Source: Planctomycetota bacterium
GTDB taxonomy: Bacteria > Planctomycetota > JAJSAM01 > JAJVHW01
Length of the DNA: 64,000 bases
Direction of reading: 5' to 3'
NCBI GenBank assembly: GCA_965248445.1
Contig: CBDFJG010000001.1
Span: forward strand, 288,001-352,000
Within the stretch, counting starts at the first letter, position 1, and the number at the start of each line of letters is the position of its first letter. Made by a program: the position numbers and the translations under genes. The notes beneath the pieces are model-generated. The model did no database searches and was not told the origin of the DNA. It saw only the letters and a list, made by a program, of their open reading frames with translations. This document shows, one piece after another, positions 26,802-46,718 of the stretch.

Positions 26802-27827
26802 ATGAAGAGAATCCTTCTCACTGCAACTCTGGCTGGAACGCTGATCGCCGGCTCGCTGGCGACTCCCGCCGAGGCCGGCTGGAGAGCGCTGTCCGGCGAG
26901 CGCGTCCCCGAGTTCAGCGCCGACGAGTGGCTGAACACCGGCACGTCGACGCCGAGCGCGGCCTCGCTGCGCGGCAAGGCGTACCTGATCGAGTTCTTCG
27001 CCACCTGGTGAACCCCCTGCATGGCTCAGGTGGGTCACCTGAACGAACTGCAGACGAAGTACTTCGACAAGGGTCTACGCGTCGTCGCCATCTCGGCCGA
27101 GCCGCTCGGCCTGCTCGAGAAGAAGATGCTCGAGGAGAAGGGCGTCGAGTACTGGATCGGGTCCGACACGTCGAGGTCTTCGATGAAGAACTTCTCCGAC
27201 ATGGTCAAGATCGCCATCCCCCACAGCTACCTCGTGGACGCGACCGGAAAGGTCGTCTCGGAAGGCATGCCGGACGATCAGCAGATCGAAGCCCTGCTCG
27301 ACGGTGTTTTTGACGAGACGCTCGGCCGCGAGTTGCACACGAAGCTCGCCCCTGCCGTCAAGAGCTACGAGAAGGGCGACATCGGCAAGGCCTGGAAGGC
27401 GGCGAGCAAGCTGGTCGAGAACGAGGACGAGGCGATCGCAGAGGACGCCAAGTTCCTGGTTGAGAAGACGGAGGCCTACGGCGAATTCCGCAAGACGCTC
27501 GCCGAGGGTGCGATCTCCTCGCGTGAGTACCTCACCGCCGACGAAGACCTCGCCGACATGGCCAAGGCGTTCTCCGGGATGCCGGTGGCGGAGTGGTCCG
27601 CCAAGACGAGCAAGGAACTCGACGCGGATCCGGACGTCAAGAACGAGCGCAAGGCCTGGAAGGCGCTCCTCAAGGTCAAGGCCGCGGAGGAGAAGGCGAA
27701 CGGCAAGGCGAAGAAGATGAAGCTCGTCCGCAAGTCGTACCTGAAGCTCGTCGACAAGTACGCCGGGACGAACGCTGCCGAGAAGGCCGCTGCCGCGGCG
27801 TCGGGGCTCGGCCGCTACGCAGACTGA
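26802..27827 (+). CDS. exported TlpA/AhpC-like selenoprotein (U70-T-P-C73), 341 aa by UGA read-through
   Basis: RBS AGGAG, signal peptide and LRGKAYLIEFFATW-TGA(27009-27011)-TPC. The frame continues into ORF 27021..27827, with a hairpin just downstream. Confidence 0.9.
27026..27042 (+). promoter_or_regulatory. putative bacterial SECIS hairpin
   Basis: TCAGGTG-GGT-CACCTGA: perfect 7-bp stem with a G-starting apical loop 22 nt after the UGA. Confidence 0.75.
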
Positions 27828-27851
27828 CCGAACGAACCGACGGATCCGACC

Positions 27852-27884
27852 GAGAGCGGAGGGCGCAGTGCCCTCCGCTCTCTT
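27852..27884. terminator. intrinsic terminator-like hairpin between convergent genes
   Basis: GAGAGCGGAGGGC-gcagt-GCCCTCCGCTCTC 13-bp stem followed by TTGATT. Confidence 0.75.
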
Positions 27885-27891
27885 GATTCTG

Positions 27892-28557
27892 TCAGTAGGT
27901 CAGCGCCTGCGCTGACTTCTCGACCTCACCCGACTCCTCCTGGATCGCGACGGCGCGAGCCATGAAGCGATCGGTGCGATACCACATGTCGTAGGTGAGC
28001 AGTGTCAGCACGATGAACGTCCCGTGTTCCCACAACTCCATGCGGTCACCGAAGAGGATGTCGCCTGTGCAGAACACGAAGAAGATCAGCACGCTGCCCT
28101 TGAACGCAATGCGATGGAGCGTCCGGTCCACGAACAGGCCCAGCAACCCGTCGCGTTGTTTCTCACGGAACGCTTCGGATGAGACCGACCAGAAGGCAAG
28201 CGCGAGGAAGAGCACGCCCAGCAAGAGCTCTGCGATCGCGAATCCGTAGAGCGACGCGAGTGCCAGCTGCCCGGGCAGGTTCAGGCACTTGAAGTAGGCG
28301 ACCATCTTGCTGTCGCGATTGACACCGAAGTACCCGATCGTCTCGCCCTTGTGCATCGTGTAGGCGAGTGAGTTGTGCCCGTGTTCATCGACCTTGTTGA
28401 CGTCGAGCAGGTAGCCGGTGGTCACGTCGCGGTTGATCCCCGACTCACCGTTGAAGAACTTGTCGCCCCCGTTCAGCAGCCAGAACATCGCCCAGAAGAA
28501 CATCAAGATGACAACCAGGTTGAGCTTGCCGTCGAGGCGGTGGATCAGGTTCTTCAT
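27892..28557 (-). CDS. hypothetical integral membrane protein (DoxX-like topology, about 4 TM)
   Basis: GGAG RBS, hydrophobic helices, FWLLNGGDKFF and GDILFGDRMELWEH. Confidence 0.75.
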   Translation of the reverse strand: MKNLIHRLDGKLNLVVILMFFWAMFWLLNGGDKFFNGESGINRDVTTGYLLDVNKVDEHGHNSLAYTMHKGETIGYFGVNRDSKMVAYFKCLNLPGQLALASLYGFAIAELLLGVLFLALAFWSVSSEAFREKQRDGLLGLFVDRTLHRIAFKGSVLIFFVFCTGDILFGDRMELWEHGTFIVLTLLTYDMWYRTDRFMARAVAIQEESGEVEKSAQALTY

Positions 28558-28692
28558 CGTGCTACTCCGCTCCAGGTGGTCGAAATCGCCCGCGCGGGCG
28601 TACCTCCCCACTCAATCGGGGGTCCCCACACCCTCTGGATCGGAGCGGAACAGCGCGAACTGAATTCGGGTCGCGGCGAGCCGGACGGCCGG

Positions 28693-30105
28693 TCAGCGCC
28701 CAGGGCGGCGATCGTCGGGTGCGTCGCCCATCGCCCTGGCTCCGCCGACGGTGGCGAGGTCGCGCAGCGAGTCCGGGAACTTCTGTTCGGGCACAGGCTT
28801 CGGCGTCCTGGGAATCCCGCTCGGCGTGGGCGGCCTGGGCAGCGACGGCCGCCGGAACTTGTACCAAAGCACGCGGATACGCGTCGCGTCGGCAACGAAG
28901 TGCGCCCCGGCGGCGGTCTGGGCGCGACGCTTGTCCCTCGGACCGACCGACGCGTGCAGCACCACCGTCCTGTCAGCGTCCCACCGCCAGTCACTGCGGT
29001 CGTACGCCTCTTCGATCGAGCGCGCCATCACCATGCCCCGCTGTGGGTGCACCTGGGCGAGGCGGCCCTTGAAGTACTTCTCGATCTTGGCCTCGTCGCG
29101 CGTGAGGGGCAGCATGTTCACGGTCGTCGTCACGCCGCCCTTCGCCGGCTCGATGTACGAGACGATGCCGACGCGCACGTCCTCGTCAGCGAGACGCGCG
29201 TCGGTCAGGTCTTGCGACACCAGGCCCCACATCTTCGACAGCTTGGTGCCGGGGCTCTGGTGGAAGACGTGGACGATGTCGATCCTGGCGCGCTGAGCCG
29301 GGGGCGGCTCAGCCGTCGGGCCGGAACGACCGACTCGAGCCGCCACGCGCAAGAGCGCGTTGGCGACCGCGACCAGCACCACCGGTGACTTCGTGGCGCC
29401 GAGTCGCTCCCTCAACCCGAGGATGCGTTCGTCGCCGTACGAGCCGGCGATCTCCAGCGCGTCGATCGTGAGATCCAGATCGTCGTCGCCGCTCTCCAGG
29501 ATCTCGAACACGAGGTCGGGGAGGAGCGGCTTGCCATCGGGGCGCGCGGCCAGCGCGCGGAGCGCCGCAGGACGAAGTGACCGGTGCTTTGTCCGCACGA
29601 CGTATTCGAGTTGCGGGGCGGCGAGAGGGCTCGGGTGCGCGCCCAGCGCAGCAATCAGCAGCAGACGAGTCGCCTGATCCGCTCGCCGATCGTAGATCTT
29701 CTCGACGAGGTCTGCGGGGGAAACGTCGAGCGCGCCGGCGCTCCGCGCCATCGCTTCCCGCACGCGGCGCGGACCGCCCTCGGCCAGCGCCGTCAGGAGA
29801 TTGCGATCCGCTCCACGGACGTCGACGCGGCCGAGGGACTCGGCAGCCGCCACGCGTACGGCCGGATCCGCGTCCTTCTGCGCCACGAATGCGAGACGCG
29901 CGGGCACCGATCGAGAACCGATCTCAGCCATGCGGCGCACGGCGGCAACCCGCTCCACGGGGTCCGTCGACGTCTTGAGGGCGTGATCGCAACTGCTGAG
30001 CGATCGGTTGTCGCCCGCGAGCGCCACGCCGGCCACCAGGACCGGCAGGAGCGCCACCGTCAGCCGGATTCCTGCCTCCCTCACGAGGCGCAGTCTAGCC
30101 CGCAT
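28693..30105 (-). CDS. secreted HEAT-repeat protein with degenerate vWA-like C-terminal domain
   Basis: Signal peptide and D.DPAVRVAAAESLG repeats; C-terminal IDIVHVF...VRVGIVSY...DWRWDADRTVVL. Confidence 0.7.
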   Translation of the reverse strand: MRARLRLVREAGIRLTVALLPVLVAGVALAGDNRSLSSCDHALKTSTDPVERVAAVRRMAEIGSRSVPARLAFVAQKDADPAVRVAAAESLGRVDVRGADRNLLTALAEGGPRRVREAMARSAGALDVSPADLVEKIYDRRADQATRLLLIAALGAHPSPLAAPQLEYVVRTKHRSLRPAALRALAARPDGKPLLPDLVFEILESGDDDLDLTIDALEIAGSYGDERILGLRERLGATKSPVVLVAVANALLRVAARVGRSGPTAEPPPAQRARIDIVHVFHQSPGTKLSKMWGLVSQDLTDARLADEDVRVGIVSYIEPAKGGVTTTVNMLPLTRDEAKIEKYFKGRLAQVHPQRGMVMARSIEEAYDRSDWRWDADRTVVLHASVGPRDKRRAQTAAGAHFVADATRIRVLWYKFRRPSLPRPPTPSGIPRTPKPVPEQKFPDSLRDLATVGGARAMGDAPDDRRPGR

Positions 30106-30419
30106 CGTCCACCAGCTTCACGCGCCTGAGCGGTCCAGACCGCCGATCCGCGCGTTGCTCCGCCTCCACAACCCAATCAGGGGTGCGTTCGGCGTCGCGC
30201 CTTCGTCTCGACACTCTGGCCTCGCTCAGGACGTGTTGCCTCGACTCGAACGATGACCCCGCGCCCGGTCTTCACCAGTGATTCGAGGGGCGCTTGGAGA
30301 CGGAGCGCGCAAACCGGGTGAACGATGCGGGCTCGCGCCACGGCAGAGCCCGGACTCCAGGGGATGACGGGCCGGTCGACATTGGTATCCTCGTAGCAGG
30401 GTTGCAAAGGAGGGCGCGG

Positions 30420-32156
30420 ATGATCCGGTGTCGTCAACTCGTGGTGCTGGCCGTGCTGGCCGGCACGCTGCCCGTGGCCGAGACCGCATTCGCCCACGGC
30501 GGCCAGTACCAGCAGCCGCCGCTCTACCGCCCGCGCCCGCGAAAGGGAGTCGGCCCCCTACCCATCGGTCCGCCGTCCCGTCCCACCCGGGGGCCGATCA
30601 CCGGCTCCGAGGTCGGACCGGCGACGACGAAGTCGAGCTACGCGCGGCTGGGTCCGGACGACTGGACAGATTGGTGGCTCTCGCAACGCCGCTCGCTCTT
30701 GAAGGGCCGGTACGTGGCCGCGACCACGCCGTCTGCCGACGGGAGCATGTCAGCCGAGCGTCGTCGCGTGATCGACGCGCTGCTTGCTGCCGTGAACGAC
30801 CGCAACGAGGACGTGGCGACCTCCGCCTTAGTCGCACTCGGGCGACTCGGGGTCAATACGACCGAGCCCGTGCTCGTCAAAGTGCTCGGTGATCCCTCGC
30901 GCACACGGTCCGTCCGCGAGGCCGCGGCGTGCGGACTCGCGCTGCTCGGACGGGGCCGGACCACGAGCGCAGCACCCGCGGCGCTCGAGTCCGTCGCGAT
31001 CACAACGCGGCTTCCCTCGCGACTGCGCGCCATCGCCGTGTATGCCCTGGGGCTGCGCGGAGACGCGGGCTCGCGGGATCTCGTGGCGGCTCTGGCGACC
31101 GCCGCATCGACGGACGTCGACGTCGCCGCGGCGGCCGCATCGTCCCTCGGCCTGATGGACGCACCCGGTGGCGTCGAGGTGCTCGAACGGCTCCTCGAGA
31201 AGGGGCGCACAGATGATCCGGAGCCGGCACTCGTCCGCGCCTACGCGGCGCACGGTCTGGCGGCCGCCGACAGCCGAAGCTCCGTGGATCTCCTGCGCAA
31301 GATGGTCGCCGACGAGGACGCGACAGTGCGGAAGGCGGCGATGCTCGCGCTGACGGCACTCTCCGAACAGGACGACATCGCGTCCGAGCAGGTGCTGCGC
31401 AAGCAACTGAACCGGGATCAGGACGTCACGTGCCGTGACGTTGCCGTGCTGTGCCTCGGACGGCTCGGTCATCGCCGTTCCGTGGCCTTGCTTCGCGATG
31501 CGTGGACCGGCGGACGCGCGGTGCACCCGACGTATGCCGCGACGGCACTCGGGTTCTGGGCGCGCGCACAAGGCAACCTGGCTCCGACCGTGCCCGTCCG
31601 CAAGGCGCTGTCCGGGCAGACCGATCCGTTGCTGCGCGGGGCGGCCACGGTCGCGCTGGCAGTGGCGCGGGACCGCGACGTCGCAGGGTTCCTCATGAGT
31701 GCCGTCGAGGCGCACGGGGATCCGGAGGTGCGCGCCGTCTCGGCGTCCGTGCTGCCCGAGATCGGGCAGAAGGAGGAGATCGCACCGGTGCTCCGCCGCC
31801 TCCTCGCATCGGGAGTCGATCCGCAGGTCCGGCGGGAGGCCGCCGGTGCACTCGGAGCGCTCGGTGACGTGGGGTCGACGCCGGCGCTCGTGCAGGTCAT
31901 CGAGAGCAACGACTCGCTGTTCGAACGAGCGGCAGCGACCATCGCACTCGGACGCATCGGCGGACCGGGCTCGGTGGAACGGCTCCTCGGCATCGTTGAG
32001 AAGGACTCGAACGAGGGCCTGCTTCGCGGACTCGCAGCCGCGTCGCTGGGCATCCTGCTCGAGCACGACGCCGCACGACCGCTGCATCTGGTCGGGCAGG
32101 ATCTCTATTGGGGCGCCGCGACCGATCCCGTGACCGAACTCATGTCCATCCTCTGA
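30420..32156 (+). CDS. secreted HEAT-repeat protein with mature N-terminal HGGQY
   Basis: RBS AGGAGG, signal peptide ending AFA, then HGGQY, a Pro/Gly/Thr linker, WTDWW and many HEAT repeats. Confidence 0.85.
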   Translation: MIRCRQLVVLAVLAGTLPVAETAFAHGGQYQQPPLYRPRPRKGVGPLPIGPPSRPTRGPITGSEVGPATTKSSYARLGPDDWTDWWLSQRRSLLKGRYVAATTPSADGSMSAERRRVIDALLAAVNDRNEDVATSALVALGRLGVNTTEPVLVKVLGDPSRTRSVREAAACGLALLGRGRTTSAAPAALESVAITTRLPSRLRAIAVYALGLRGDAGSRDLVAALATAASTDVDVAAAAASSLGLMDAPGGVEVLERLLEKGRTDDPEPALVRAYAAHGLAAADSRSSVDLLRKMVADEDATVRKAAMLALTALSEQDDIASEQVLRKQLNRDQDVTCRDVAVLCLGRLGHRRSVALLRDAWTGGRAVHPTYAATALGFWARAQGNLAPTVPVRKALSGQTDPLLRGAATVALAVARDRDVAGFLMSAVEAHGDPEVRAVSASVLPEIGQKEEIAPVLRRLLASGVDPQVRREAAGALGALGDVGSTPALVQVIESNDSLFERAAATIALGRIGGPGSVERLLGIVEKDSNEGLLRGLAAASLGILLEHDAARPLHLVGQDLYWGAATDPVTELMSIL

Positions 32157-32181
32157 CATCCGCATCCGGTAGCTTGTCGGG

Positions 32182-32769
32182 ATGAGCGAGAGACACAACC
32201 GTCGCCGACCTCTGTGGCATCGCGTGATCGCCGCCCTGTGTGGAATGGCACTCCTTCTCGGATGCGCGAGCAACTCGTCGCCGGGATCCAATGCGACACA
32301 GTATCCAGAGCGCACGATGCAACTGCTCCGACGGACGGTTGGCGAGTGGACATACGAGTCCGAGGCGATGACCGGTCGACCAGAGCAGCCGCTGGAGAAG
32401 GGCCGCGGCACAGAGAGCGTGCGGCTCGTCGGCAACTGGGCCGTCTTCGAGGGTCGCGTCCCGACCCCGCAAGGAACGATGACGACGCTGCTCACGGTCG
32501 GTCACGACTCCCGGCGGGGTGCTCCGTCGGCGACGTGGGTCGATTCCATGACCGACATGCAGTGGGTGTACGGAGGCACGGTCGACGAGACGGGCACAGT
32601 CCTCACCCTCACGGCGAAGGGCCCGAACTCCCAGTCGGCCGGCAGAGATTTCCTCTACCGCAGCGTGCTCGAGGTCCCCGACTCGGAGAGCCGCGTGCTT
32701 CGGTCGGAGATCCTGACGGACGGCGAGTGGGTCACCTTCCTCACGGCCCGCTACTCGCGCGTTCGGTAG
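32182..32769 (+). CDS. DUF1579 family lipoprotein
   Basis: Lipobox LLGC, VGEWTYE, GTESVR and TWVDSM. Confidence 0.8.
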   Translation: MSERHNRRRPLWHRVIAALCGMALLLGCASNSSPGSNATQYPERTMQLLRRTVGEWTYESEAMTGRPEQPLEKGRGTESVRLVGNWAVFEGRVPTPQGTMTTLLTVGHDSRRGAPSATWVDSMTDMQWVYGGTVDETGTVLTLTAKGPNSQSAGRDFLYRSVLEVPDSESRVLRSEILTDGEWVTFLTARYSRVR

Positions 32770-32892
32770 CGCCAGCTGGGACGGCCCTCCCGAGCGGGTA
32801 TCCTCGCCCCCGCGGCTCGGCCACGGGGAGGGCAGGCGGTCTGCTCCTCCGTTGAGCGTTACTTCTAGGCGGCCGGGAGACCGGAGCCGGTG

Positions 32893-33969
32893 TCACAGCA
32901 GCCGGCGGCGGAACTCCTGGATCACGGGCAGCGCGTCCAGCCACGCTGACGCGTCTGCCCGGTGCGGGTCTTTCGGATGCGGATCCCCGGCGTAACCGTC
33001 GGGGATCTGGCTGTCTCCAGCATCGTGGTACTCGTACCCCGGGATGAACAGGTCGTCGTCCCCGTGGACGTCGAGCGTGCGCACGCCGTACGTCGACAGT
33101 TCAGTCGTCAGCGTCTGCGGTGGGTTGACCCACGCGTGCGTCGGCGACGCCATGAACAGGTACTGGATCTTCCCGTTCTCGGAGCGGACGCGGAACTTGC
33201 GCAGTTCCCCACCGAAGAACTTGCTGACTGAGGCGATCACCTCGAGCACGCCGTTCTTGAAGTCCGGCGCGTAGCCGCGCGCGAAGCGCAGAGATGCGGG
33301 GTCGCCCTTCTTGACGAAGCGCGCCACCCGCCGGCCGCCGTTCACGCGCTCGCGGGATGCCGCCAGTTCGCGAGGCCTCGTGAAGTCGGCATAGGGCTCG
33401 ATGCGCCCGGACGGCCCCTCACGCAGCACGAGCTCGACCGCGCGGTTGTCCTTCCGCCGCTTGGCGCGCCGGCTGACCACGTCCATCGCGGCCTGCATCT
33501 CGAACGGCAGATTCGTGGTCTCCTCGGCGCTCACCAGGTGCTCGCCGTCCGCGTCCCGCTCGACGCGCACGTCGCCCTTCCCGATCCAGTACTCGTCGTG
33601 GTCGTGGACGAAGTGGCTGGCAACGCGCCAAACGAGGGAGGAGTCCTTGTAGAAGATGCGCGGATAGACGTCCCGCACCCGCCCGTTCGCGGCGGGTTGC
33701 ACCACGTACGCGATGAAGAACCCGAGCGCCTCGTTGAAGCGGGAGTTGCTCAGGAAGTAGATCGTGTCGAACAGCCGGATCTCGTGACGAGGCAACCGGC
33801 CGTTGCGCAGAAGCGCGTCCGGGTCGTGACGCGCCGTGCCCGCTGCGCGCAGCCGGGCGCCCTCCGACAGAAGTTCCTGAAACCGCTTGGCGACCTGCGC
33901 GCGCGACCGCACCTCCGGCTCGACACCGGTCACGATCTCGGTCCTCTGCCGCCCGCTGCGCGCCTTCAT
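32893..33969 (-). CDS. conserved hypothetical protein
   Basis: 358-aa ORF with protein-like composition (YPRIFYKDSSLVWRVASH, WIGKGD, PGYEYH). Confidence 0.75.
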   Translation of the reverse strand: MKARSGRQRTEIVTGVEPEVRSRAQVAKRFQELLSEGARLRAAGTARHDPDALLRNGRLPRHEIRLFDTIYFLSNSRFNEALGFFIAYVVQPAANGRVRDVYPRIFYKDSSLVWRVASHFVHDHDEYWIGKGDVRVERDADGEHLVSAEETTNLPFEMQAAMDVVSRRAKRRKDNRAVELVLREGPSGRIEPYADFTRPRELAASRERVNGGRRVARFVKKGDPASLRFARGYAPDFKNGVLEVIASVSKFFGGELRKFRVRSENGKIQYLFMASPTHAWVNPPQTLTTELSTYGVRTLDVHGDDDLFIPGYEYHDAGDSQIPDGYAGDPHPKDPHRADASAWLDALPVIQEFRRRLL

Positions 33970-34005
33970 CGCGAGACGGTACGCAGAAGTGCGCCTCCGC
34001 GGCAG

Positions 34006-34420
34006 TTACCGGCGACCGAACAGCCGCACAAGCCGATCCACCCGCGACTCCGCAACGATCTGCACACCGCGCTCCCGCCGCCAGAGTCGGTGCAACCGCT
34101 TGTCGGCCATGGGCGTCTCGTACGTCGTCCCCAGCGGCTCTCCGATCAACTCTTCATAGTGCTCGGCGAACTCGCCGTAGCCGAAGTTCACGGCCGGCCT
34201 GCACGACACACTGTCGGCAGGCGAGTACATCAGCATGGGTCGATCCTCGAAGAACCGCACGACTCCTCCGATGTCCTCGTGCCGCTCCGGCCAGCCCACG
34301 AGCGCGACAAGCGCGATCGGCGCCCAGACTCGTCCGACGGCCCAACAGAGTCCGAGAAACCGGCGCCGGACGTGCTGCCGTCCGGCCCGCAACGGAACTG
34401 GGGTCTGCGGCACCTGCACG
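34006..34420 (-). CDS. hypothetical protein (start uncertain)
   Basis: The 3' part of ORF 34006..34971 fills the gap and contains a hydrophobic segment. Confidence 0.4.
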
Positions 34421-34486
34421 CGCCATTGGTCGCCCGGCGGAGGCGTTTCTTCCGCGAATACTCGCGAGACCGCCGCTGGTGTACCG

Positions 34487-35074: not shown

Positions 35075-35197
35075 CGGTGATTCTCCATTCGTGCGATCGA
35101 GCGGCCGGACTTCCCCGGCCGCTCCTCTCCGCCACCGCTTCAACACGCTCGTGAAGCCGAGGTTTCGCGATCGCTTCGGATCGGGTCGCCGCCGGCC

Positions 35198-36652: not shown

Positions 36653-36658
36653 GGTTAT

Positions 36659-37536: not shown

Positions 37537-37591
37537 GGCTTCGCGTTCAGCTAGCTCGCTCTCTACTGCGCCGAGCGGGTACGTTGGCGCC

Positions 37592-38113: not shown

Positions 38114-38120
38114 AATCGGG

Positions 38121-39215
38121 CTACTGGATGTTCGGCGGGTCGGAGTCCCCGAACTTGTTTCCCGTGTAGGTGTTCGCCGAGGGGACGTCGCCCGACTCGT
38201 CGTTGATGTCGAACTTCAGGCTCCCTTTGATCTTGTTGTTCGTGACGGTGTTCCCGCCCGCACCGAATTCGAACTCGAGACCGCTGTCGCGCGAGCGAGT
38301 GATCTTGTTGTTCTCGAACGTGTTTCCGGTGCCTTCGACATCCACGCCGTCGTCGACGCTCTGCGTGATCTTGTTGCCGCGATACGTGGAACCGTCGCCG
38401 TCGGCGTCGATTCCGTCATTTCCCGCGCGCCGGATTTTGTTTCCCTCGTACGTGTTGTTGCCGCCCTCGTCGTCGAGTCCATCGTCAGACGGTCTGACGA
38501 TGTTGTTGTTGCGAGCGGTGTTGCCGCTGGCGTCGTCGTTGAACTGAATCGCGTCGGACTCGGTGATCTTGATCGTGTTCTTCTCGAAGAGGTTCCCCGT
38601 ACCGTCATCGACCTCGAGACCGTCGTCGTTCGTGCCCGTGACCTTGGTGCGGCGAACCGTGTTGTCGTCGCCGATACACACCTCGACGCCATCCCCCTCG
38701 ATGCGCTTCATCGAGCACTTCTCGATCATGCCGTTGTCGGAAGAATCCGTGAGGCGCACGGCGTCTCCTTCGATGAGCTCGAACCTCGTCTTCTCGACAA
38801 TCACGCGGTTCGAAGCTTCGACCCGCACGCCGTCACCGCCGCAAGCGTCGACGCGGCACTTCGACAGCGTGACGTCGTTCGAATTCTGGATCAGGAAGCC
38901 GTTCAGGTCGGCGCCCTCGACCCGGATCTTCTTGATCAGGATGTCGTTGCAGGTCGTGACGGTCAGCGCGGTTCCCGCACCACCGTCGATGATCACCTTG
39001 CCCTTGCCGCAGATCGTGATGTTGTTGTTCCCGTCGATGACGACGTTCTCGGGGTAGGTGCCCTTCTTCACGATGATCGTGTCGCCGTCGCCGGCCAGGT
39101 CGACGGCGCCCTGGATCGTGTCCGAGCTGCCAGGCACCGTGAGCTCAACGGCTCGCGCCAGAGACGTCAGCGACAAGAGACTCACCGAGAACACTGCACA
39201 AAAGATCCAACGCAT
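38121..39215 (-). CDS. secreted right-handed beta-helix (pectin-lyase-like) repeat protein
   Basis: Signal peptide, TIQGAVD...GDTIIVKKGTY and regular DG(I/L/V)...N...N.I repeats. Confidence 0.88.
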   Translation of the reverse strand: MRWIFCAVFSVSLLSLTSLARAVELTVPGSSDTIQGAVDLAGDGDTIIVKKGTYPENVVIDGNNNITICGKGKVIIDGGAGTALTVTTCNDILIKKIRVEGADLNGFLIQNSNDVTLSKCRVDACGGDGVRVEASNRVIVEKTRFELIEGDAVRLTDSSDNGMIEKCSMKRIEGDGVEVCIGDDNTVRRTKVTGTNDDGLEVDDGTGNLFEKNTIKITESDAIQFNDDASGNTARNNNIVRPSDDGLDDEGGNNTYEGNKIRRAGNDGIDADGDGSTYRGNKITQSVDDGVDVEGTGNTFENNKITRSRDSGLEFEFGAGGNTVTNNKIKGSLKFDINDESGDVPSANTYTGNKFGDSDPPNIQ

Positions 39216-39435
39216 CGTGATACCTCCGCGCGACCCCTGTCCGGCCGTCCGGCCGGGGTGCGCGCGCACGACGTGCTCCGTATGATCACGCCGCCGCAAC
39301 GCTCACGTCGCCCCTCTGGTCGCAGAGTCAGGGTGCCAGAACCACCGGCGCCGATCCACGGCGGGACCGAACGCGCGGCCCTTCGAGCCCAAGAGAGCGC
39401 AGGCCTGCGCAGCAATCGGATGCGACTATGTCGTG

Positions 39436-40024
39436 GTGCCGACCATCTTCACGCACGCCGTCCTGGCCGCCGGAGCGTTCACGCTCGTGTCGAACGGGCG
39501 TCGCGGCGCGCGGCTCGGAGCGTGTGTCGCCGCCGGGCTCTCCATGCTCCCCGACGGGGACGTGCTGTGGTGGAACCTGACGTCGTACGGAGAACCGTGG
39601 GGCCACCGCGGCATGACGCACTCGCTCTTCGCCGCGGTGGTCCTGGGCGCCGCGGCGGCGCCGCTGGTGCGGCGCCGCATCGACTTCCCCGGCGCAGAGT
39701 GGGGACTGTTCGCGCTCTTCGCGGCGGTGACGGCCTCCCACGGGCTACTCGATTCCCTGACCGATGGCGGGCGCGGGATCGGCTTCTTCCTTCCCTTCGA
39801 CGAGACGCGGTACTTCCTGCCCGTGCAGCCGGTACCCGTGGCGCCGATCAGTGCGAACCTCCTCTCGCCATGGCTCTGGCGTGTGCTGGCCGGTCGAGGT
39901 GCTGCTGTTCTGGCCGCTGGCGGCAGCTATGGCCTGGGGCCGACCGCCGCGCCGGCGCGTCCACGCCGCCCTGCTCGTGGCGGCTCTCACGGCGAGCGCG
40001 GCGACCTGGGCCGTCCGCATCTAG
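39436..40024 (+). CDS. YdjM-like metal-dependent hydrolase with apparent +1 frameshift near 39890
   Basis: TH, LPDGD, GHRGMTHS and SHGLLDSLTDGG motifs. The C-terminal TM segment VEVLLFWPL... lies in the neighbouring frame and ends at 40024. Confidence 0.8.
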
Positions 40025-40041
40025 AACGCGCTCGGCAAACG

Positions 40042-40077
40042 AAAAGGGCCCCCGCCACGCGCCGCGTCGCGGGGGCC
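40042..40077 (-). terminator. rho-independent terminator
   Basis: GGCCCCCGC...GCGGGGGCC stem followed by TTTT on the minus strand, downstream of the gene ending at 40099. Confidence 0.75.
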
Positions 40078-40098
40078 GTCGTTGCTATCCGTGAGGGC

Positions 40099-42105
40099 CT
40101 ACTTGTACCTCAGCCTCGTGCCGACATCGTTGACGCTGCAGACCTGCACAGCATGTTCGGTCACTCCGTCGTACCTGACGGAGAAGTAGAACGGGGCCGA
40201 CCCGATCGGGAACGTCCCGAGGTCGATGTCGCGTGCGAACACGCGCAGCCGGCCCCTCGCGAAGTCGAACTCGACGAACCACACGTCTGGCGGCTTCGCC
40301 GCGCCCGGCGGGTCCGGGCGGACGATCCTCACGCGCATCGGGAGGTTCTGCGTGACGTTCGCGAGCTTGGGCACGATGACGTCGTACGTGTTCCCGGGCT
40401 CGCCCATGCGAAGGTGGATGGCTCCCGTGATGGAACTCAGTTCCGGCAGCGCGGCAATCAGACTCAGCGAGTCGTTGCCCGGGCCGGCGGGGATCTTGGC
40501 CGTGATCCTCTCGATCGCCAGTGCCGGGTCGACTCTCGGCTGCATGCCGGTGCGGAAGGACCCGCCGACCAGGATGACGTCGCTCGCCACGACGAAGGCG
40601 CCCCTGACCACACGGAAGTGGAGCAGGTCGCCCGGTCCCGACGGCGGGAGCGTGTCGGTCCAGTTGATCACGACGATCGAGACGCGCGCCTTGGACGAAG
40701 GAGCGCGCGGCGGCTTGACCGTCCTCCGGAAGTTGCCGGCGCGGACTGAGAAGCTGGTGCCGCGCCGGTTCGGCTTGAGGCCGTTGGGCAGGCTCTGGGT
40801 GAGCGTCCCGTACTCCACCGTCATCGGCTGTGTGAAGTCCACGGTCTTGTCGCCCAAGTCGAGGCAACCGCTGAGGCGCAGTTTCCCGCCGATCGTGCGG
40901 ACGGACCTCAGGGCGAGGAACCCGTTCGGCGGAACCGGCAACGGACCGAACACGTGTTCGTCCGCGCCGTCGTTGGGGTTCGTGCCGTCGACGTCCACCT
41001 CAGGGCCGTCGTCGACGCCGCCTGAGTCCGTGTCCGCCGTGTTCGGGTCGGTGGCACCGTGCCCGTGGCTGGCGCCCGCGCTGTCCTCGCCGTTCGACTC
41101 CTTGTCATCCCTTAGCGTGTCGGCGTCGGTGTCGGCGTCGTTCGGGTTCGTCGGGGCTCCGTCAAAGGCATTTCCGCTTCCGCTGGTTTCGGCACCGTCG
41201 TTGATGGTGTCACTGTCGGAATCCGCGTTGCTCGGGTCGGTCGGATCGCCCGGCCCGAACGGGTCGCTGACACCGCTGATCTCATCGTCGTCATCGATGT
41301 TGTCCGCGTCGGTGTCGGCGTTGTTGGGGTCGGTGACGAAACCGTCGGCACCTGCGACCACCTCTTCACCGTCGTTGATCGTGTCGTTGTCCGAGTCCGA
41401 GTCGGTCGGGTCGGTCTGAGCTCCGCCGAACGGGTTGAGCGCACCGCTGATCTCATCGTCGTCATCGATGTTGTCCGCGTCGGTGTCGGCGTTGTTGGGG
41501 TTCGTGATGAAGCCATCAGCCCCTGCAGCCACCTCTTCACCGTCGTTGATCGTGTCGTTGTCCGAGTCGGCGTCGTTCGGGTCGGTGGGCCCGAAACCCG
41601 TCAAGTTGCCTGCCGAGTCTTTACCCGCGATCTCGTTCGTGTCCGCGAGTCCGTCGCCGTCGCTGTCGGGCGCAGTGACGGTGAACACACAACTCCAAGC
41701 GTGCGCATTGACGGCGAAGTTTGTGAACAACTGCACGCAGTACGTCCCCGGGCCGACAGACACGTTCGTGTTGGACGACGTGCCGGTGGTATTGGGATTG
41801 AACGAGCTGCAGGCGTCAAAGCCCCACGTTCTGGTCTCGCCGGCGCCGCCCGTGATACTGAAACTGATGTTCGTGATCGTGTGATTGACGGGCACGACTA
41901 CGTTGTACGTGTCCTGATTCGTGGTCGGCGTTCCCGGTAGCGTCCCCCGCACCGTGTTCGTGCCCCCGGTCATGGTGATGTTCGTGACGAAGCCGTTCGG
42001 CAGGTCCCCGTCGACGGCCTCGTTGTAGTTGTCTGCGTTGGCAGTCGCCAACGGCACGAGCAGGAACAGACAGAGGGGCAGAATCCCCTTGATGAAGCTT
42101 CTCAT
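40099..42105 (-). CDS. secreted protein with thrombospondin-type-3-like Ca-binding repeats
   Basis: RBS GGGAGG, signal peptide, N-terminal beta domain, repeated TDP..AD(S/T)D.D.I.D..E units and a basic beta-rich C-terminal domain. Confidence 0.85.
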   Translation of the reverse strand: MRSFIKGILPLCLFLLVPLATANADNYNEAVDGDLPNGFVTNITMTGGTNTVRGTLPGTPTTNQDTYNVVVPVNHTITNISFSITGGAGETRTWGFDACSSFNPNTTGTSSNTNVSVGPGTYCVQLFTNFAVNAHAWSCVFTVTAPDSDGDGLADTNEIAGKDSAGNLTGFGPTDPNDADSDNDTINDGEEVAAGADGFITNPNNADTDADNIDDDDEISGALNPFGGAQTDPTDSDSDNDTINDGEEVVAGADGFVTDPNNADTDADNIDDDDEISGVSDPFGPGDPTDPSNADSDSDTINDGAETSGSGNAFDGAPTNPNDADTDADTLRDDKESNGEDSAGASHGHGATDPNTADTDSGGVDDGPEVDVDGTNPNDGADEHVFGPLPVPPNGFLALRSVRTIGGKLRLSGCLDLGDKTVDFTQPMTVEYGTLTQSLPNGLKPNRRGTSFSVRAGNFRRTVKPPRAPSSKARVSIVVINWTDTLPPSGPGDLLHFRVVRGAFVVASDVILVGGSFRTGMQPRVDPALAIERITAKIPAGPGNDSLSLIAALPELSSITGAIHLRMGEPGNTYDVIVPKLANVTQNLPMRVRIVRPDPPGAAKPPDVWFVEFDFARGRLRVFARDIDLGTFPIGSAPFYFSVRYDGVTEHAVQVCSVNDVGTRLRYK
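41271..41590. repeat. 171-bp coding tandem duplication
   Basis: caccgctgatctcatcgtcgtcatcgatgttgtccgcgtcggtgtcggcgttgttgggg occurs at both 41271 and 41442. Confidence 0.85.
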
Positions 42106-42367
42106 GACGCGACCTCCCATGGTGCTGCGTCGAACGGCGCACTTCCCTGAGCACTGACGGCCACCCACCACGAGCGGCGCGCTCCCCTTGCTGCGCCCCA
42201 CGCAGACCGTCAAGCCCGGCGACCCGCGTAGAGGCACGAGGATATCGAACTTGCGACCGGGTCGCAACGGGGTGAGCGACTCCGGTCACGGATCGCTGTC
42301 GCTCACCACGGCAGGTGGCGGAAGTCGCCAGATCCGACGCCGTGCAGGACGGCTCGCGCGGGACCTT

Positions 42368-43462
42368 CTACCGCCTCGACGGACCGTGCGGGTCCGTGAC
42401 CGGTACCTCGCCCTCCCAGTCGACGCCCTTCTTGCGGCCTTCGCGGATGTGCTCGCGGGCGTCCTTCGTGCCGGGGGCGTGCGCCTTCATCGCTGCCGCG
42501 AGCGCCTTCTCGAGGGAGTCGGCGTCGGTCTTCGCGGTCTGGGCGAGCACCTTGCCCTCGAGTCCGAACGCATCCGGTTGCACGATCACGAGCGCTGCGT
42601 CCGCAGCAACTTCCGCGATCTTCTCCAGGTCCTTGCGTTTCGTGGTCTCCGCCCAGACGAGGCGGCCGATGAAGTCGTCGGCCCACGCGAGCGGACGCAG
42701 TTGCTTCTCGAGTGCCTCACGCGCCGCGTCCGTCTTGGCGACGACGATGGCCGTCGGCAGCATGTCGCACGCGGCGACGTTCAGACCGAGGCGCACGTCC
42801 TCGACGTACGGCATGGTCCCGGGGCCCGTCTTCCCCTTCTGCTTCTTCGCGTACCGCGCCGCGATGTCCGTCAACGTCGCAACCATCTTGGTGACGTCCT
42901 CGCCGCCGGGGCTGTCCGGCCGTCCCCGCCGAGGACGACCGTCCCCGAGCGCCATCTGCGGTGAGCGTCCGGCGCGCGTGAGCTTGGTCTCGCCGTCGGG
43001 GGCGAGGATCGAGAAGACGGTGTTCTCGAGCTGGCCGCTACGTCCGGTGAAGACCGTCGCGAGGAACTCGGCTTCGTCCTTGTCCTCGTACGTCGAGAGA
43101 CGCGCGCACACGAACTCGCGCGAGACCGCGACCACCTCGGGCTGGGACAGGAAACTCCTGTCCATGTTCTGCTTGCCGGGTCACCAGATCCCCGAGATGC
43201 CGTGGCACTGGGGTGCCGCGGACAGCAGGAAGATCGGCTTGCCCGTCCGCTCCGCCTCGGCCTTCGCGCCGTCCCACGTCCCGAACCACTGCACCAGCGT
43301 TCGCTCGGCAGCGGCCTCGCCGCTTCCGGCAACGGGGCCTTCGGGGCGAGGCGGGCCGCCTCTTTCGCCTCCCGGCGGGCCGCCGCGGTCCTGCGCAGAC
43401 GCGACGGACGTCGCGGCGGCGAGGCACATCACCAGGATCAAGCTGCTCTTCATGCGGGACAT
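42368..43462 (-). CDS. exported thioredoxin-fold-like putative selenoprotein (C86-x7-U94), 364 aa by UGA read-through
   Basis: RBS GGAGGAG and signal peptide. VQWFGTWDGAKAEAERTGKPIFLLSAAPQCHGISGIW-TGA(43183-43181)-PGKQNMDRSFLSQPEV continues in frame, with a hairpin downstream. Confidence 0.82.
43145..43163 (-). promoter_or_regulatory. putative bacterial SECIS hairpin
   Basis: Minus strand GGACAGGA-GTT-TCCTGTCC: perfect 8-bp stem with a G-starting loop 26 nt after the UGA. Confidence 0.72.
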
Positions 43463-43578
43463 GGACTCCTCCGAGGCCCGAAGTCTCCATGGCGGTCCTT
43501 GCGCAGTTCTTACGCACGATCGACCGGGCGGGAGGTCGCGACGGGCACCGCCCCCACCGGTCCTGCGATACTGCCGCC

Positions 43579-44763
43579 ATGCGCAACCTCCGGGCATTCG
43601 CGCCGGCCGCGCTGGCCGGCGCTCTCTTTGGTCTCCTCGGGACCGTCGTCATCGCAGCAGACGACGAGACGGGCGGTGCGCTGCGGGGAGACGTCGGTGA
43701 TCGGGACGGGGTCACCAAGGGAGCAGAGGTCGCGGCCGGACCGCTCGGGTGGAACCCCGACTTCGGCGAACACGTGGCGACCACCACGACCGACGAGCTC
43801 GGCAAGTTCTCGCTCGAAGGCGCTCCGCTCGGGCCGATCGACGTCTGGGTGCGGCCCAAGGACGGCAAGTGGAAGTTCTCGATCCGCATGATGCACCCAG
43901 GGGTGAACGACCTCGAGGTGAACGCGACGCCGGTGCGCGAGTACCCAGATGACTTCGGCGGATTCGGCGACGACAAGGGTGAACCGCGCACAGGCGTGGT
44001 GCTCGACAACAAAGGGAAGCCGCTGGCCGGCGCAGCGGTCGGCGCATCCGGAAGCGGCCTCGCGTGGACCGTCACCGATGCGGACGGGAAGTTCGCTTTC
44101 GAGAAGCTCGCGAACGGAGACCGGTTGCTCGTGCGCGCGCGCGGCTTCAAGGACAAGATCGTCGAGTTGAAGAAGAAGAAGAAGGTGAAGGTCAAGCTGG
44201 GCGTCCCCAAGCCGACCACGGTCCTCGTCGTCAACAAGGCCAAGGAGCCCGTCGCGGGCGCATGGGTCACGCTCGGGGACGAAGACCGCATGCTCGGCAC
44301 TGAGGGCTTCAGTCAGTTCCCGCCGGCAGACCGACTCGTCGGCGGCTGGACGAACGCGGCGGGCGAGGTGCAGATCCTCTGGCCGGGAAAGAACACCAAG
44401 TCCCTCGCCACGGCGTACGCGCACGGGTTCGCGCCCACGCGCGGCAAGTTCACTGCGGCGAAGCGCACGACGCTCACGCTCGAGCCGGCCAAGCCGGTGC
44501 GCGCGATCGCCGTCGTGAAGGAGTCTGGCTACACGCTCAACGACGTGTTCGTGGGCGCGCTCCACAAGAGCTCAGGCGGCGTCGACACCATCTCCGCCGT
44601 GCCGCAGGCCGATCAGCGCGGCCCGATCGTGCTCGGGCGCACCGATCAGAACGGCCAGTGCGTGATCCCCGCGCTGCCACTCGACTCGAAGATGCTCTGC
44701 GTCGTCGGCGAGCAGCGCCGCCACGCGAACGTCACTACGGAGCCGGTCGGAGCGGTCGAGTAG
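43579..44763 (+). CDS. secreted carboxypeptidase-regulatory-like repeat protein
   Basis: Signal peptide and repeated G.V.D..GKPLAGA.V...TDADGKF units. Confidence 0.8.
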   Translation: MRNLRAFAPAALAGALFGLLGTVVIAADDETGGALRGDVGDRDGVTKGAEVAAGPLGWNPDFGEHVATTTTDELGKFSLEGAPLGPIDVWVRPKDGKWKFSIRMMHPGVNDLEVNATPVREYPDDFGGFGDDKGEPRTGVVLDNKGKPLAGAAVGASGSGLAWTVTDADGKFAFEKLANGDRLLVRARGFKDKIVELKKKKKVKVKLGVPKPTTVLVVNKAKEPVAGAWVTLGDEDRMLGTEGFSQFPPADRLVGGWTNAAGEVQILWPGKNTKSLATAYAHGFAPTRGKFTAAKRTTLTLEPAKPVRAIAVVKESGYTLNDVFVGALHKSSGGVDTISAVPQADQRGPIVLGRTDQNGQCVIPALPLDSKMLCVVGEQRRHANVTTEPVGAVE

Positions 44764-44964
44764 AGAAGCGGCTCACCGCGCGCTGCAGGCGATCCGACAT
44801 GAACTCGCGGTGAACAGAACTCGTCGCGACGTGCTCGCCCGTGTTCACGGTGTCGTAACTCGGCGTCTGCAAACTCCTCTTCCTCACGGCATTGCGGGGC
44901 ACGCGAGCGCATGGGGCGCGAGCGGAACCCGATCGGGCCGTGTGCAAGACGGATGGAGGCAGAC

Positions 44965-45705
44965 ATGCGCAAGATCAAGCGTATCGCGTTGGCTTTGCTG
45001 CTCGCCGGCGTTGTAGTGCCGTCGGGTACGGACGCGCTGGCGGGGAAGGAAGAGGTCGAACTCGCCGATGCGGCGGTGTTCATCGAGTGGAACTTCACGG
45101 ACACCGACTTCGGGATCCACTTCTTCTGGGACGGAGTGGGCTGGGAGAAGATGAAGGTCCGGGACGATCGGGGAAAGACCGTCCTGCAGGTGAAGACCTC
45201 CAAGAACGTGAAGGCGCAGAGCCTCACGGAGGCGATGTTCGAGAGCCGCGAGCCGCCGGCTTCCGAGCTCTCGATGGAGCAGTTCTTCGACCGCTTCCCA
45301 GAGGGCACGTACGCATTCAAGGGGAAGTCGTTCGACGGCAACAAGCTCGTAGGCGAAGCCGACTTCGCGCACACCTTGCCTGCGCCCACCACGATCACGT
45401 CGCCCACCGGCGGCAGCACGCAGTCCGCGGACGGTTTCACGTTCAGTTGGACCGAGGTGACGCAGGACATCGACGGCAACGACATCACGGTGGAGGGCTA
45501 CGTCGTCGTGATCGAATCGACGAGCGAGGACCCGGCAGTCGAACTCGAGCTGTTCGTCCCGTTCGGCACGAACTCACTCGACATCCCCGGTGAGTTCATC
45601 ACTCCGGACAACACCTACAAGGCCGAGGTGATCGTGATCGACGAGGAGAGCGGCAACCGGACGATTCGAGAGTCCGGGGAGTTCTCCACCGACTCCGGAT
45701 CGTAG
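44965..45705 (+). CDS. secreted hypothetical protein (FN3-like C-terminus)
   Basis: RBS GGAGG, signal peptide, FIEWNFTDTDFG, FESREP and FPEGTY. Confidence 0.8.
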   Translation: MRKIKRIALALLLAGVVVPSGTDALAGKEEVELADAAVFIEWNFTDTDFGIHFFWDGVGWEKMKVRDDRGKTVLQVKTSKNVKAQSLTEAMFESREPPASELSMEQFFDRFPEGTYAFKGKSFDGNKLVGEADFAHTLPAPTTITSPTGGSTQSADGFTFSWTEVTQDIDGNDITVEGYVVVIESTSEDPAVELELFVPFGTNSLDIPGEFITPDNTYKAEVIVIDEESGNRTIRESGEFSTDSGS

Positions 45706-45727
45706 GGATCACGACCCGGATAGACGA

Positions 45728-45759
45728 CGCCCGGGAGGAGCCTGTGCTTCTCCCGGGCG
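45728..45759. terminator. hairpin between convergent genes
   Basis: CGCCCGGGAGGAGC-ctgt-GCTTCTCCCGGGCG 14-bp stem with one G-U pair. Confidence 0.65.
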
Positions 45760-45767
45760 CTCGCTGT

Positions 45768-46718
45768 CTAACGGCCGAGTTTGCGCCGCAGGTCGTTCGT
45801 CAGACGCACGGCGTCGTCGTAGTGATCGCCGATGCGCAGGCTGGATCGCGAGACGACCAGCGCGCGGTCGAGGGCGCCCTTGAGGTCCTTCTTCTTCGCC
45901 AGATCGCGCGCTTCCTGGAGCGCCTTCTCCTGGCGTTCGAGCCGTTCCTCGACTCGCCCCCAGTACGGCTTGAAGTGCTTCTTCACGCTGCTCTCGAGGA
46001 ACTTTGCGATGTCGCGCGAGCGCCGCATCGGCGGCGCACTCTCCACGACGTGTAGACCGGCGTCGACCACGACCATGCGCGGCCCGGTCGCGTCACCGAA
46101 GTGGCGCAGGAGGGCGGGATCGCTCTTGTCGATCTCGACGCGCACCAGCCGGTAAAGGCGCGCCCAGCGGGCGACGATCTCGTCGTCGATCGCGAGGCAC
46201 TGCTTCTCTTGCTTCTTGAGCACGGCGGCGGGGGTCGTCGGGGCGGCCTCGTCTCCGTAGTGCGACACGTGCAGGTGCACGAGCGTCGGACGCGTCTCCG
46301 CCTTGCGGATCCGCAGCAGCGACCGCACGCGGGACTCGATGTCGTCGGTACCGTCCGCGTCGGGCGGCTTCGTTCCCTCGTCGCCCCCGGTCACTGCCTT
46401 GGGCTGGGTCAGGTAGATGCTGCGCCAGCGCGTCTTGGTTCGATCGGTGTCACCGCCGGTCGTGGCGGGACTGCCGTATCCGCCGCCGGTCGTCGTAATG
46501 CCGCCGCCGGGCTTGTCGTCCCCGCCACCGGTCACGGGTCCCGCCGGCCGGCCGGGCTGTTCCTTCTCCGTCTCGGGACCGTTGGTGCCCGGAAGCGTCT
46601 CTCCAACTGGGGCCGTCACGACGACCGAGCCGTGACCGGGTCAGGTCGGCGGCAGGACCCCGAAGATCGACATCGCGGCGACGAGCACAGGCAGCGAAAA
46701 GGCGTGCAGCGTGAGCAT
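45768..46718 (-). CDS. putative exported selenoprotein (U26 in PPT-U-PGHG) with Gly/Thr linker and degenerate thioredoxin-like domain, 316 aa by read-through
   Basis: RBS GGGGAG, ATG at 46718, 25-aa hydrophobic leader and TGA at 46643-46641. The frame continues into ORF 45768..46619, which has no RBS or leader of its own. Confidence 0.6.

Follow-up and report, generated by a model that had tools for sequence, protein, structure and literature searches.

The record of bacterial selenoproteomes is dominated by anaerobic life: Sec-rich groups are anaerobes, aerobes rarely keep selenoproteins, and the selenoprotein gene records stand at 57 and 63 (PMC13188914). The described systems closest to the genes analyzed here are families with a thioredoxin-type fold or redox site. 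Redoxin/Prx-like UxxC selenoproteins (PF08534, PF00578; Table 1 of PMC13188914) carry a W-U-x-x-C redox site; Trx7/PDZ proteins (NF041199) combine a CxxU motif with a PDZ domain; and in VPGUxxT proteins (NF041382/NF041383) U directly follows V-P-G. The strings Planctomyc, periplasm and signal peptide are absent from the text of PMC13188914.

The window, a 64,000-nucleotide stretch of a contig from a Planctomycetota bacterium, holds three genes (genes 1, 2 and 3), each split by annotation software, that most likely encode one exported thioredoxin-like Sec protein apiece. As a whole, the data are best explained by three independent selenoprotein genes of a Sec-decoding member of the Planctomycetota, with a probability of roughly 0.8. 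Gene 1 is of an already catalogued kind, whereas genes 2 and 3 represent families that none of the catalogues checked contains: both are over no NCBIfam (20.0) cut-off, and their motifs appear neither in NCBIfam 20.0 nor in the 119-family Table 1 of PMC13188914 (2026), which bears out an earlier suggestion, made in a sequence-only reading of the window, that at least two motifs here would be unfamiliar. A literature search, with subscription journals mostly outside its coverage, found no paper describing either family.

The same reading had assigned to each gene a ribosome-binding site, a signal peptide, a TGA (27009 on the + strand, 43183 and 46643 on the - strand) followed by more than 250 open codons, and a hairpin 3' of that TGA. 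The TGAs are in place and the frames continue for 271, 270 and 290 codons (genes 1, 2 and 3); with TGA read as U, they encode 341, 361 and 316 residues with U70, U91 and U26. Shine-Dalgarno-like runs (AGGAG, GGAGGAG and GGGGGAG) precede all three, and each has a hydrophobic N-terminus by computed hydrophobicity, which suggests products that are exported or membrane-anchored. By eye, an A-x-A cleavage site is present in genes 1 and 2 but not in gene 3, which also lacks a clearly basic n-region. The hairpins hold up in genes 1 and 2, while gene 3 has two competing structures and a weak case. Genes 2 and 3 do share the context TGA-CCC-GG, which merely encodes U-Pro-Gly; as a signal it can be rejected, the Pro codon being variable in the gene 2 family and U-P-G not being kept in the gene 3 family. 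The idea that several thioredoxin-fold proteins here carry an export signal or anchor is supported by prediction for all three; genes 2 and 3 show the fold in predicted structures (Z 9-11.5), and profile comparison detects no homology between them (probability 12%).

Does this organism decode UGA as Sec? Its genome encodes SelA, SelB, SelD and tRNA-Sec, each above its cut-off in profile or tRNA searches; the SelD gene itself contains an in-frame TGA, and, across the phylum, SelA was detected in 49 of the 61 genomes sampled. TGA is also the most frequent normal stop (2375 of 3797 confident gene ends genome-wide) and the tRNA-Trp anticodon is CCA; therefore, as had been supposed, there is no genome-wide recoding of TGA to Trp. 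Base-call errors are made unlikely by short-read (Logan) contigs from four runs, all of one sample that is possibly the source, which have zero differing letters across the three TGAs. In the homologue rows examined, the position aligned with each TGA holds either TGA or Cys, and neither Trp nor Arg occurs there. This machinery, together with TGAs that align with TGA or Cys in all three genes, is as expected of SelB/SECIS-decoded genes; a hairpin as modeled in PMC13188914 (a G at loop position 1 or 2, 16-37 nt past the UGA, -7.5 kcal/mol or lower) is found in genes 1 and 2. SelB on the hairpin behind each UGA would deliver Sec-tRNA, and the chain would then be exported or anchored, its selenol serving as an extracytoplasmic redox nucleophile.

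Gene 1 comprises the following features.

26790..26794, + strand: ribosome-binding site AGGAG, read from the sequence
26802..27827, + strand: gene 1, predicted exported TlpA/ResA-like redoxin of 341 residues, with W-U70-T-P-C and, beyond it, a helical C-terminal region
27009..27011, + strand: Sec codon, first position of UxxC, from homologue alignment
27026..27042, + strand: SECIS-like hairpin, 7 bp, GGU loop at +21
27852..27882, + strand: terminator-like inverted repeat past the true stop, seen by eye

Behind a signal peptide of about residues 1-25, gene 1 passes the cut-offs of PF08534 (58 bits against 26.6, residues 31-160) and PF00578 (53.1 against 26) with UxxC at the active site, and thus belongs to the redoxin/TlpA-like proteins; it would act as a TlpA-type disulfide reductase. 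It shares W-U-x-x-C with the redoxin/Prx-like selenoproteins but differs in an extra helical tail of 170 residues that is similar to the C-terminal half of NF041382. Only this C-terminal part matches the VPGUxxT models (residues 156-332 against NF041382, 2e-18, 66.7 of 350 bits, far under the cut-off); gene 1 is therefore not a VPGUxxT protein (NF041382/NF041383), and it is over no NCBIfam cut-off. At the Sec site, 24 homologous loci have TGA (15) or Cys, as TGC or TGT (9). All TGA-bearing matches, among those listed, are in SelA-positive genomes, and none of the matches in five SelA-negative genomes has TGA; related genomes are not independent cases in this comparison. The hairpin has z -1.8 against shuffles (9 of 200 equally stable), and five of the homologues with TGA share a hairpin of the form CAGGTG-GG/GT-x-CACCT.

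Gene 2 lies on the opposite strand.

43466..43472, - strand: ribosome-binding site GGAGGAG, read from the sequence
42368..43453, - strand: gene 2, predicted exported, 361 residues, motif P-Q-C83-H-G-I-S-G-I-W-U91-P-G-K
43205..43207, - strand: Cys83 on an inserted beta-hairpin of the predicted model, candidate resolving partner of Sec91
43181..43183, - strand: Sec codon, TGA in 80 of 80 loci
43145..43163, - strand: SECIS, GGACAGGA-GUU-UCCUGUCC, supported by covariation

The predicted model (pLDDT 89, pTM 0.87) has two tandem thioredoxin-fold domains, at about residues 52-207 and 210-324, and resembles DsbH 2ju5 (Z 10.5, rmsd 2.8, 117 aligned) and thioredoxin h1 6i19 (Z 9.3, rmsd 2.8, 102 aligned); an alternative start is at 43462. 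The first domain barely reaches PF13899 (27.0 bits, cut-off 27) and has the fold of Trx7/PDZ, Thioredoxin_7, DsbH and DUF255 proteins (PDB 2ju5, 3f9u, 3ira). Unlike NF041199 proteins, gene 2 has a second thioredoxin domain instead of a PDZ domain and C-x7-U-P-G-K instead of CxxU; it falls outside that family (15.9 bits where the cut-off is 300, residues 55-126 only), which 9 of 101 gene 2 family members match (best E 0.0013). The VPGUxxT proteins are also thioredoxin-like, and many gene 2 relatives have V-P-G two residues ahead of W-U; however, U in gene 2 follows G-x-W rather than V-P-G itself. Gene 2 has no match to these models, and 3 of 101 family members match NF041383 (best E 8.7e-5).

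The 80 loci with TGA were found by a pattern that excludes the Sec site; three full-length homologues have Cys there, reading W-C-P-G-K. In 119 of 120 and 148 of 150 hits, the public protein of this family begins past the TGA; nearly all, among the hits listed, are annotated without the active site. The family comprises 313 clusters at 50% identity (E under 1e-30), and it occurs in records titled Planctomycetota and Verrucomicrobiota; a single gene 2 protein used as query in a contig search gave zero matches. The SECIS has 8 bp; its GUU loop lies at +25, and 4 of 200 shuffles are as stable (z -2.7). In the alignment, 94% of cells are paired and 5 of 8 pairs have changed on both sides, a pairing reached by 0 of 500 shuffles and compared with 26-58% in slid controls; it was measured in coding sequence of related genomes, where relatedness alone can pass the test. 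Sec would occupy the attacking position of the first thioredoxin domain, in which Lys replaces the usual resolving Cys. What, then, would resolve Sec91? This is probably Cys83, which lies on the inserted hairpin of the predicted model and is invariant in 7 of 7.

Gene 3 is built differently.

46724..46730, - strand: ribosome-binding site GGGGGAG, read from the sequence
45768..46718, - strand: gene 3, 316 residues, hydrophobic N-terminus, U26
46641..46643, - strand: probable Sec codon, from family and paralogue alignment
46615..46636, - strand: competing hairpin A, 8 bp, from 4 nt past the TGA, -12.9 kcal/mol
46611..46626, - strand: candidate SECIS, hairpin B, GGUCGU-CGUG-ACGGCC, loop at +20, -7.6 kcal/mol
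46197..46199, - strand: Cys174, the only Cys of the thioredoxin domain, invariant in 13 of 13 and 38 of 38

A disordered Gly/Pro/Thr arm extends to about residue 90 (pLDDT under 50 at model residues 1-71) and is followed by a thioredoxin-fold domain (about 95-246), with H150-x2-H153 and the single C174, and by a helical tail. The domain resembles DsbD gamma (1vrs; Z 11.5, rmsd 2.4, 112 aligned), and a YbbN-like thioredoxin with a helical tail (3qou) is the Foldseek top row (E 1.5e-3); gene 3 differs from both in having no CxxC and in that about 70 disordered residues separate the domain from Sec, which sits at the N-terminal tip. Gene 3 itself has zero NCBIfam matches and one Pfam row (E 0.058); its family of 38 members gives only weak rows in either and reaches no curated cut-off. 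No close orthologue was seen, a metagenome search giving one partial locus that lacks the N-terminus; L077, considered as a fourth paralogue, was rejected, only its tip aligning (hhalign probability 28%).

If the domain has a single Cys, what would a distant Sec do? From the tip of its flexible arm, it would probably shuttle electrons to or from Cys174 of its own domain. Animal thioredoxin reductase has a C-terminal Gly-Cys-Sec-Gly arm, a selenol beside Cys on a flexible terminus, like the U-C and C-U tips of gene 3 relatives; the gene 3 family differs in that its arm is N-terminal, predicted to be exported and attached to a thioredoxin domain without flavin, and gene 3 itself has Thr, not Cys, next to U. 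TGA is found at the mature tip in 29 of 30 family loci, the tips being U-C (14), U-G-U (7), C-U (4), U-R (2), U-U (1), C-x4-U (1) and none (1). Such variation between U-C, C-U, U-U and U-G-U might also be expected of a ligand set, and H150 and H153 are invariant in the family; the N-terminal Sec could thus form a metal-binding tip with the conserved H-x2-H instead of a redox shuttle, and a Sec-bearing HMA domain protein is among the genome's candidates. This alternative is nonetheless unlikely: the fold is thioredoxin/DsbD-gamma-like, its active-site helix region contains an invariant Cys, and no conserved metal-transport neighbours were found near the gene 3 family loci.

The TGA of gene 3 is itself quite likely to be a Sec codon. 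Hairpin B, with 6 bp, a spacing and loop type usual for this genome and a narrow fit to the PMC13188914 model, competes with hairpin A, whose loop is closer to the TGA than the 16-37 nt of that model; the region is no more stably folded than its shuffles (z +1.0 for 50 nt, -1.1 for a 24-nt piece) and failed the automatic SECIS rule. This failure, the TGC (Cys) that its closest paralogue, in the same genome, has at the same place (E 7e-6), a T-U-P tip seen in no relative and the real nonsense TGAs in the genome's repeated elements (e.g., C3:878512 and C1:92080) would all suit a different history, in which genes 1 and 2 are selenoproteins and gene 3 is either a Cys gene that a TGC-to-TGA change has recently broken or a Sec gene with a decayed SECIS. 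That history is distinctly improbable: (i) the stop falls exactly at the family redox tip, and 69 other codons of gene 3 could likewise become a stop in one step, which gives chance nonsense mutation odds of about 1 in 70 of striking this site; (ii) U occupies the second tip position in 5 of 30 relatives; (iii) the CGUG loop at +20 of the 6-bp hairpin is the loop type of several solid candidates; and (iv) the 290 codons past the TGA are intact and score as coding.

The sequence-only reading had gone further, proposing a Sec redox system local to these 20 kb. Three of about 37 candidates do lie within 19.6 kb, contig C1 has 8 of 37 on 12% of the genome, and a similar group of three is found on C4 at 669-681 kb. 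There is, however, very little chance that genes 1-3 make up a co-regulated local cluster for extracytoplasmic Sec redox work: they are transcribed as separate units from both strands, unrelated genes intervene, none of the families has a neighbour common to its loci (88, 15 and 16 loci), and their homologues are on different contigs or far apart in two other genomes (G001 and G049), as are the best gene 1 matches in a third (G041). When 30-50 genes are placed at random in simulations, the chance that three of them share a 19.6-kb interval anywhere is P = 0.13-0.47. The local system is thus rejected, while an extracytoplasmic one is better supported at whole-genome scale: genes 1-3 sample a dispersed, mostly exported selenoprotein gene set.

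Scarcely credible is a division of gene 2 into a coupled pair, the first gene encoding a short exported peptide that stops at G-I-W and the second a protein of the cytoplasm from M-D-R-S: the Met 6 codons past the TGA is nearly invariant in public proteins, and gene callers and databases start a separate protein there, but a single thioredoxin domain spans the TGA (as do both domain match and predicted model at U91), P-G-K between TGA and Met is conserved at the protein level, the three homologues with Cys are continuous, and Met is replaced by Thr, Leu, Gln or Phe at some loci.

Genome-wide, a read-through scan yields 29 domain-supported and about 40 possible selenoprotein genes, mostly predicted to be exported. 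The sole DsbD match reads G-U-I-N-C, with TGA at the first position of the gamma-domain CxxC, and this one DsbD would probably keep all three proteins reduced. A broader proposal can be advanced tentatively: a Planctomycetota lineage that may respire oxygen might run much of its periplasmic thiol redox on Sec, its Sec-bearing DsbD feeding at least 20 exported Sec thioredoxin-fold proteins, among them two uncatalogued designs, a tandem thioredoxin with a C-x7-U-P-G-K center and a thioredoxin in which Sec on a swinging N-terminal arm stands in for the lost attacking Cys. If true, such a network would counter the view of large selenoproteomes as an anaerobe property. The decoding mechanism is known, whereas the protein families and their scale are uncatalogued in the sources checked; annotators gain two family models to build (genes 2 and 3), and the 29 to about 40 candidates, with a heme-copper oxidase family subunit (PF00115, either an oxidase or a nitric oxide reductase) encoded in the same genome, make a selenium-based periplasmic redox relay testable.

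How solid is the genome-wide set? A first coding model did not discriminate and was replaced by a second. The scan misses short-tail sites and paired close TGAs, and a second pass found such pairs. Of forty candidates inspected, six were left out before the family scan as probable true stops; L074 was left out after the scan, with Met closely behind the stop and no family spanning it. Strong G-loop hairpins accompany 19 of 111 TGA read-through candidates versus 3 of 103 TAG controls; the SECIS rule, shaped on the candidates and thus partly circular, is passed by 27 of 37 against a background of 16-17.5%; and in 24 of 34 scanned candidates a family match spans U.

Three genes in the window are each interrupted by a single in-frame TGA, as the sequence-only reading had claimed, and each stays open beyond it:

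27009, + strand: in-frame TGA of gene 1, a TlpA/ResA-like redoxin; continuous protein of 341 residues if read as selenocysteine (Sec, U)
43183, - strand: in-frame TGA of gene 2, a tandem thioredoxin-fold protein with C-x7-U-P-G-K; continuous protein of 361 residues if read as U
46643, - strand: in-frame TGA of gene 3, a probable Sec-arm thioredoxin; continuous protein of 316 residues if read as U

All three carry a ribosome-binding site ahead of a hydrophobic N-terminus. In a six-frame codon model built from this genome, the sequence before and after each TGA has coding scores, with no change of frame. Could the stops reflect recoding or base-call errors? TGA is the commonest stop (2375 of 3797 confident gene ends) and the anticodon of tRNA-Trp is CCA, so the genome uses the standard genetic code, and the earlier view that recoding is not genome-wide stands; short-read contigs of four runs, all of one sample that is perhaps the source, carry the same letters at all three TGAs. 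The search for Sec machinery found SelA, SelB, SelD and tRNA-Sec, each above its cut-off; SelD carries its own in-frame TGA (G-G-G-U-A-C-K). Across 61 sampled genomes of the phylum, SelA occurs in 49 and SelB in 46; SelA is present in all 17 members of this genome's class in that sample. Genes 1-3 are real, mis-annotated selenoprotein candidates.

Gene 1, a redoxin with a predicted signal peptide and the active-site context F-F-A-T-W-U-T-P-C, is a fresh representative of a catalogued selenoprotein type, because UxxC redoxins are listed in Table 1 of PMC13188914. Among 24 homologous loci fetched from a longer match list, the site is TGA in 15 and Cys in 9; none of the five SelA-negative genomes with a match has TGA. 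The gene 1 hairpin (7 bp, GGU loop) recurs in five TGA-bearing homologues. Another redoxin-family gene (17914-18984, +), 8 kb ahead of gene 1, lacks an internal stop.

Gene 2 has TGA at this site in all 80 best loci of 175 confirmed in genomes (77 by pattern, 3 by eye) and in 7/7 full-length homologues from relatives. Public proteins mostly miss the site (119 of 120 listed matches, 148 of 150 listed representatives); all three listed proteins that span it have Cys there, and most family records are titled Planctomycetota. One of the seven full-length homologues (L036/L046, G006:C33) keeps the TGA and SECIS, the SelB-binding hairpin, with a frameshift about 15 codons downstream; it is a pseudogene or an assembly slip. 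The SECIS, GGACAGGA-GUU-UCCUGUCC, is paired in 94% of cells across 69 distinct sequences, and two-sided changes occur in 5 of its 8 pairs. Shuffles never equal this pairing and slid control structures fall to 26-58%, although kinship of the sequences can inflate the test. The predicted structure (pLDDT 89) has two thioredoxin-fold domains, with U91 immediately ahead of the active-site helix and Cys83 on an inserted hairpin. The roles that we infer come from the register with DsbD-type domains, which would put U91 at the attacking and Lys94 at the resolving position; aligned by BLAST to a DUF255 protein, C83 and U91 are instead the counterparts of both cysteines in C-H-W-C.

Gene 3 relatives share a signal peptide with an A-x-A end, followed by G-U-C and a Gly-rich linker. 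At 30 loci of other genomes (21 read by pattern, 9 by eye; six are distant matches), the tip is U-C in 14, U-G-U in 7, C-U in 4, U-R in 2, and U-U, C-x4-U or absent in one each. Seven relatives from one family of the phylum (L217-L219, L221-L224) have G-U-G-U-G at the mature tip. The genome holds two paralogues, tipped G-U-C and S-C, and the gene 3 TGA aligns with the TGC of the latter. In the predicted structure, a disordered arm of ~70 residues leads into a thioredoxin domain and from there into helices; the domain is nearest DsbD gamma (Z 11.5, rmsd 2.4, 112 aligned) and has H-x2-H and a single Cys, all invariant in the family. A hairpin had been claimed 3' of each TGA: this holds for genes 1 and 2 (GGU and GUU loops) and is less clear for gene 3. 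There, one hairpin is stable but begins 4 nt from the TGA, a second has a more usual position but marginal stability (-7.6 kcal/mol), the automatic SECIS rule makes no call, and shuffled sequences fold just as well as the region itself. By chance alone, a nonsense change would fall on this codon about once in 70. Sec is probably decoded here, at odds of roughly four in five. NCBI protein P0149, titled Planctomycetota, matches a gene 3 homologue (L198) in a genome of the same order; together with the gene 2 record titles, this points to Planctomycetota as the likely phylum. By eye, the subclade of L021, L022, L024 and L198 adjoins ORFs resembling 2Fe-2S and molybdenum hydroxylase subunits.

Are these families new? 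The motifs of genes 2 and 3 match none listed in Table 1 of PMC13188914, which upholds the claim of at least two motifs outside standard families as far as that table goes, and the main text of the deep-Sep paper (PMC12013277) contains none of five terms looked for. Gene 2 stays below the cut-off of every NCBIfam model, and the 101 family members match such models only weakly. Genes 2 and 3 appear to come from families without an entry in NCBIfam or that table; published candidate lists or supplements may bear on novelty.

A genome-wide read-through scan found strong G-loop hairpins 3' of 19/111 TGA sites against 3/103 TAG and 0/22 TAA controls, with a loop rule adjusted after positives were seen. 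Of 40 candidates inspected, 34 were fetched and profile-scanned; a Pfam or NCBIfam match spans U in 24 (one weak), and 18 of these have a hydrophobic stretch ahead of U. Adding SelD, two Trx7/PDZ proteins and genes 1 and 2 gives 29 domain-supported selenoprotein genes. The count rises to 31 if gene 3 and the paralogue tipped G-U-C are included, and to a possible ~40 once eight motif-only candidates and a two-TGA gene on contig C1 are added. The Trx7/PDZ proteins (L234 and L235, contig C3) exceed the NF041199 cut-off and have two TGAs each, giving U-x-x-U (R-U-D-P-U, R-U-V-P-U), whereas the Table 1 entry (PMC13188914) is a single-Sec CxxU. The set (L049-L082, L234, L235), mostly with predicted export signals, includes thioredoxin types, three AhpD-like and two DUF3179 proteins, DUF1223, deiodinase-like, Rdx, ArsC-like and HMA. 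Seven motif-only candidates, L076 to L082, have no family match at U. Two of them read A-G-U-G-P-P and A-F-A-U-P-N-C straight after a signal peptide, and one has E-E-F-C-U-T; the others are an FG-GAP protein, a leucine-rich-repeat protein containing L-P-U-P, and two small membrane proteins. The two-TGA gene (C1:61300-63200, +) reads G-G-T-U-S-G-G-D-G-S-G-G-T-U-T.

Genes 1-3 sit within this large, dispersed selenoproteome, its export predicted. The idea of a local Sec system within 20 kb is rejected: the intervening genes are unrelated (HEAT-repeat, EF-hand, NmrA, MarR, SnoaL, beta-helix, YdjM, carboxypeptidase-regulatory), neighbours recur within subsets of family loci alone, and three genes would fall within 19.6 kb by chance with P = 0.13-0.47 (uniform placement of 30-50 genes).

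What might these proteins do? In the DsbD relay, DsbD takes electrons from cytoplasmic thioredoxin and hands them on to thioredoxin-fold proteins in the periplasm. This relay would serve the products of genes 1-3, each with Sec acting as nucleophile: gene 1 would have a standard UxxC centre, gene 2 a loop-resolved one and gene 3 a selenol on a tether. Their likeliest role would be to repair or reduce disulfides and sulfenylated cysteines of the envelope. The sole DsbD match (L068, C1:397668-399560, -) has G-U-I-N-C in its gamma domain, with TGA at the first CxxC position and a hairpin loop, CAUG, outside the usual model. No in-frame stop interrupts the match to formate dehydrogenase alpha, and a COX1-family gene is present, a class covering oxidase and nitric oxide reductase alike.

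The window also holds:

1152-2519 and 54132-55514: IS66 and DDE_Tnp_1_4 transposases
60361-63395: divergent LigD and Ku genes (non-homologous end joining)

Outside the window, nonsense stops occur in several of the genome's repeated elements.
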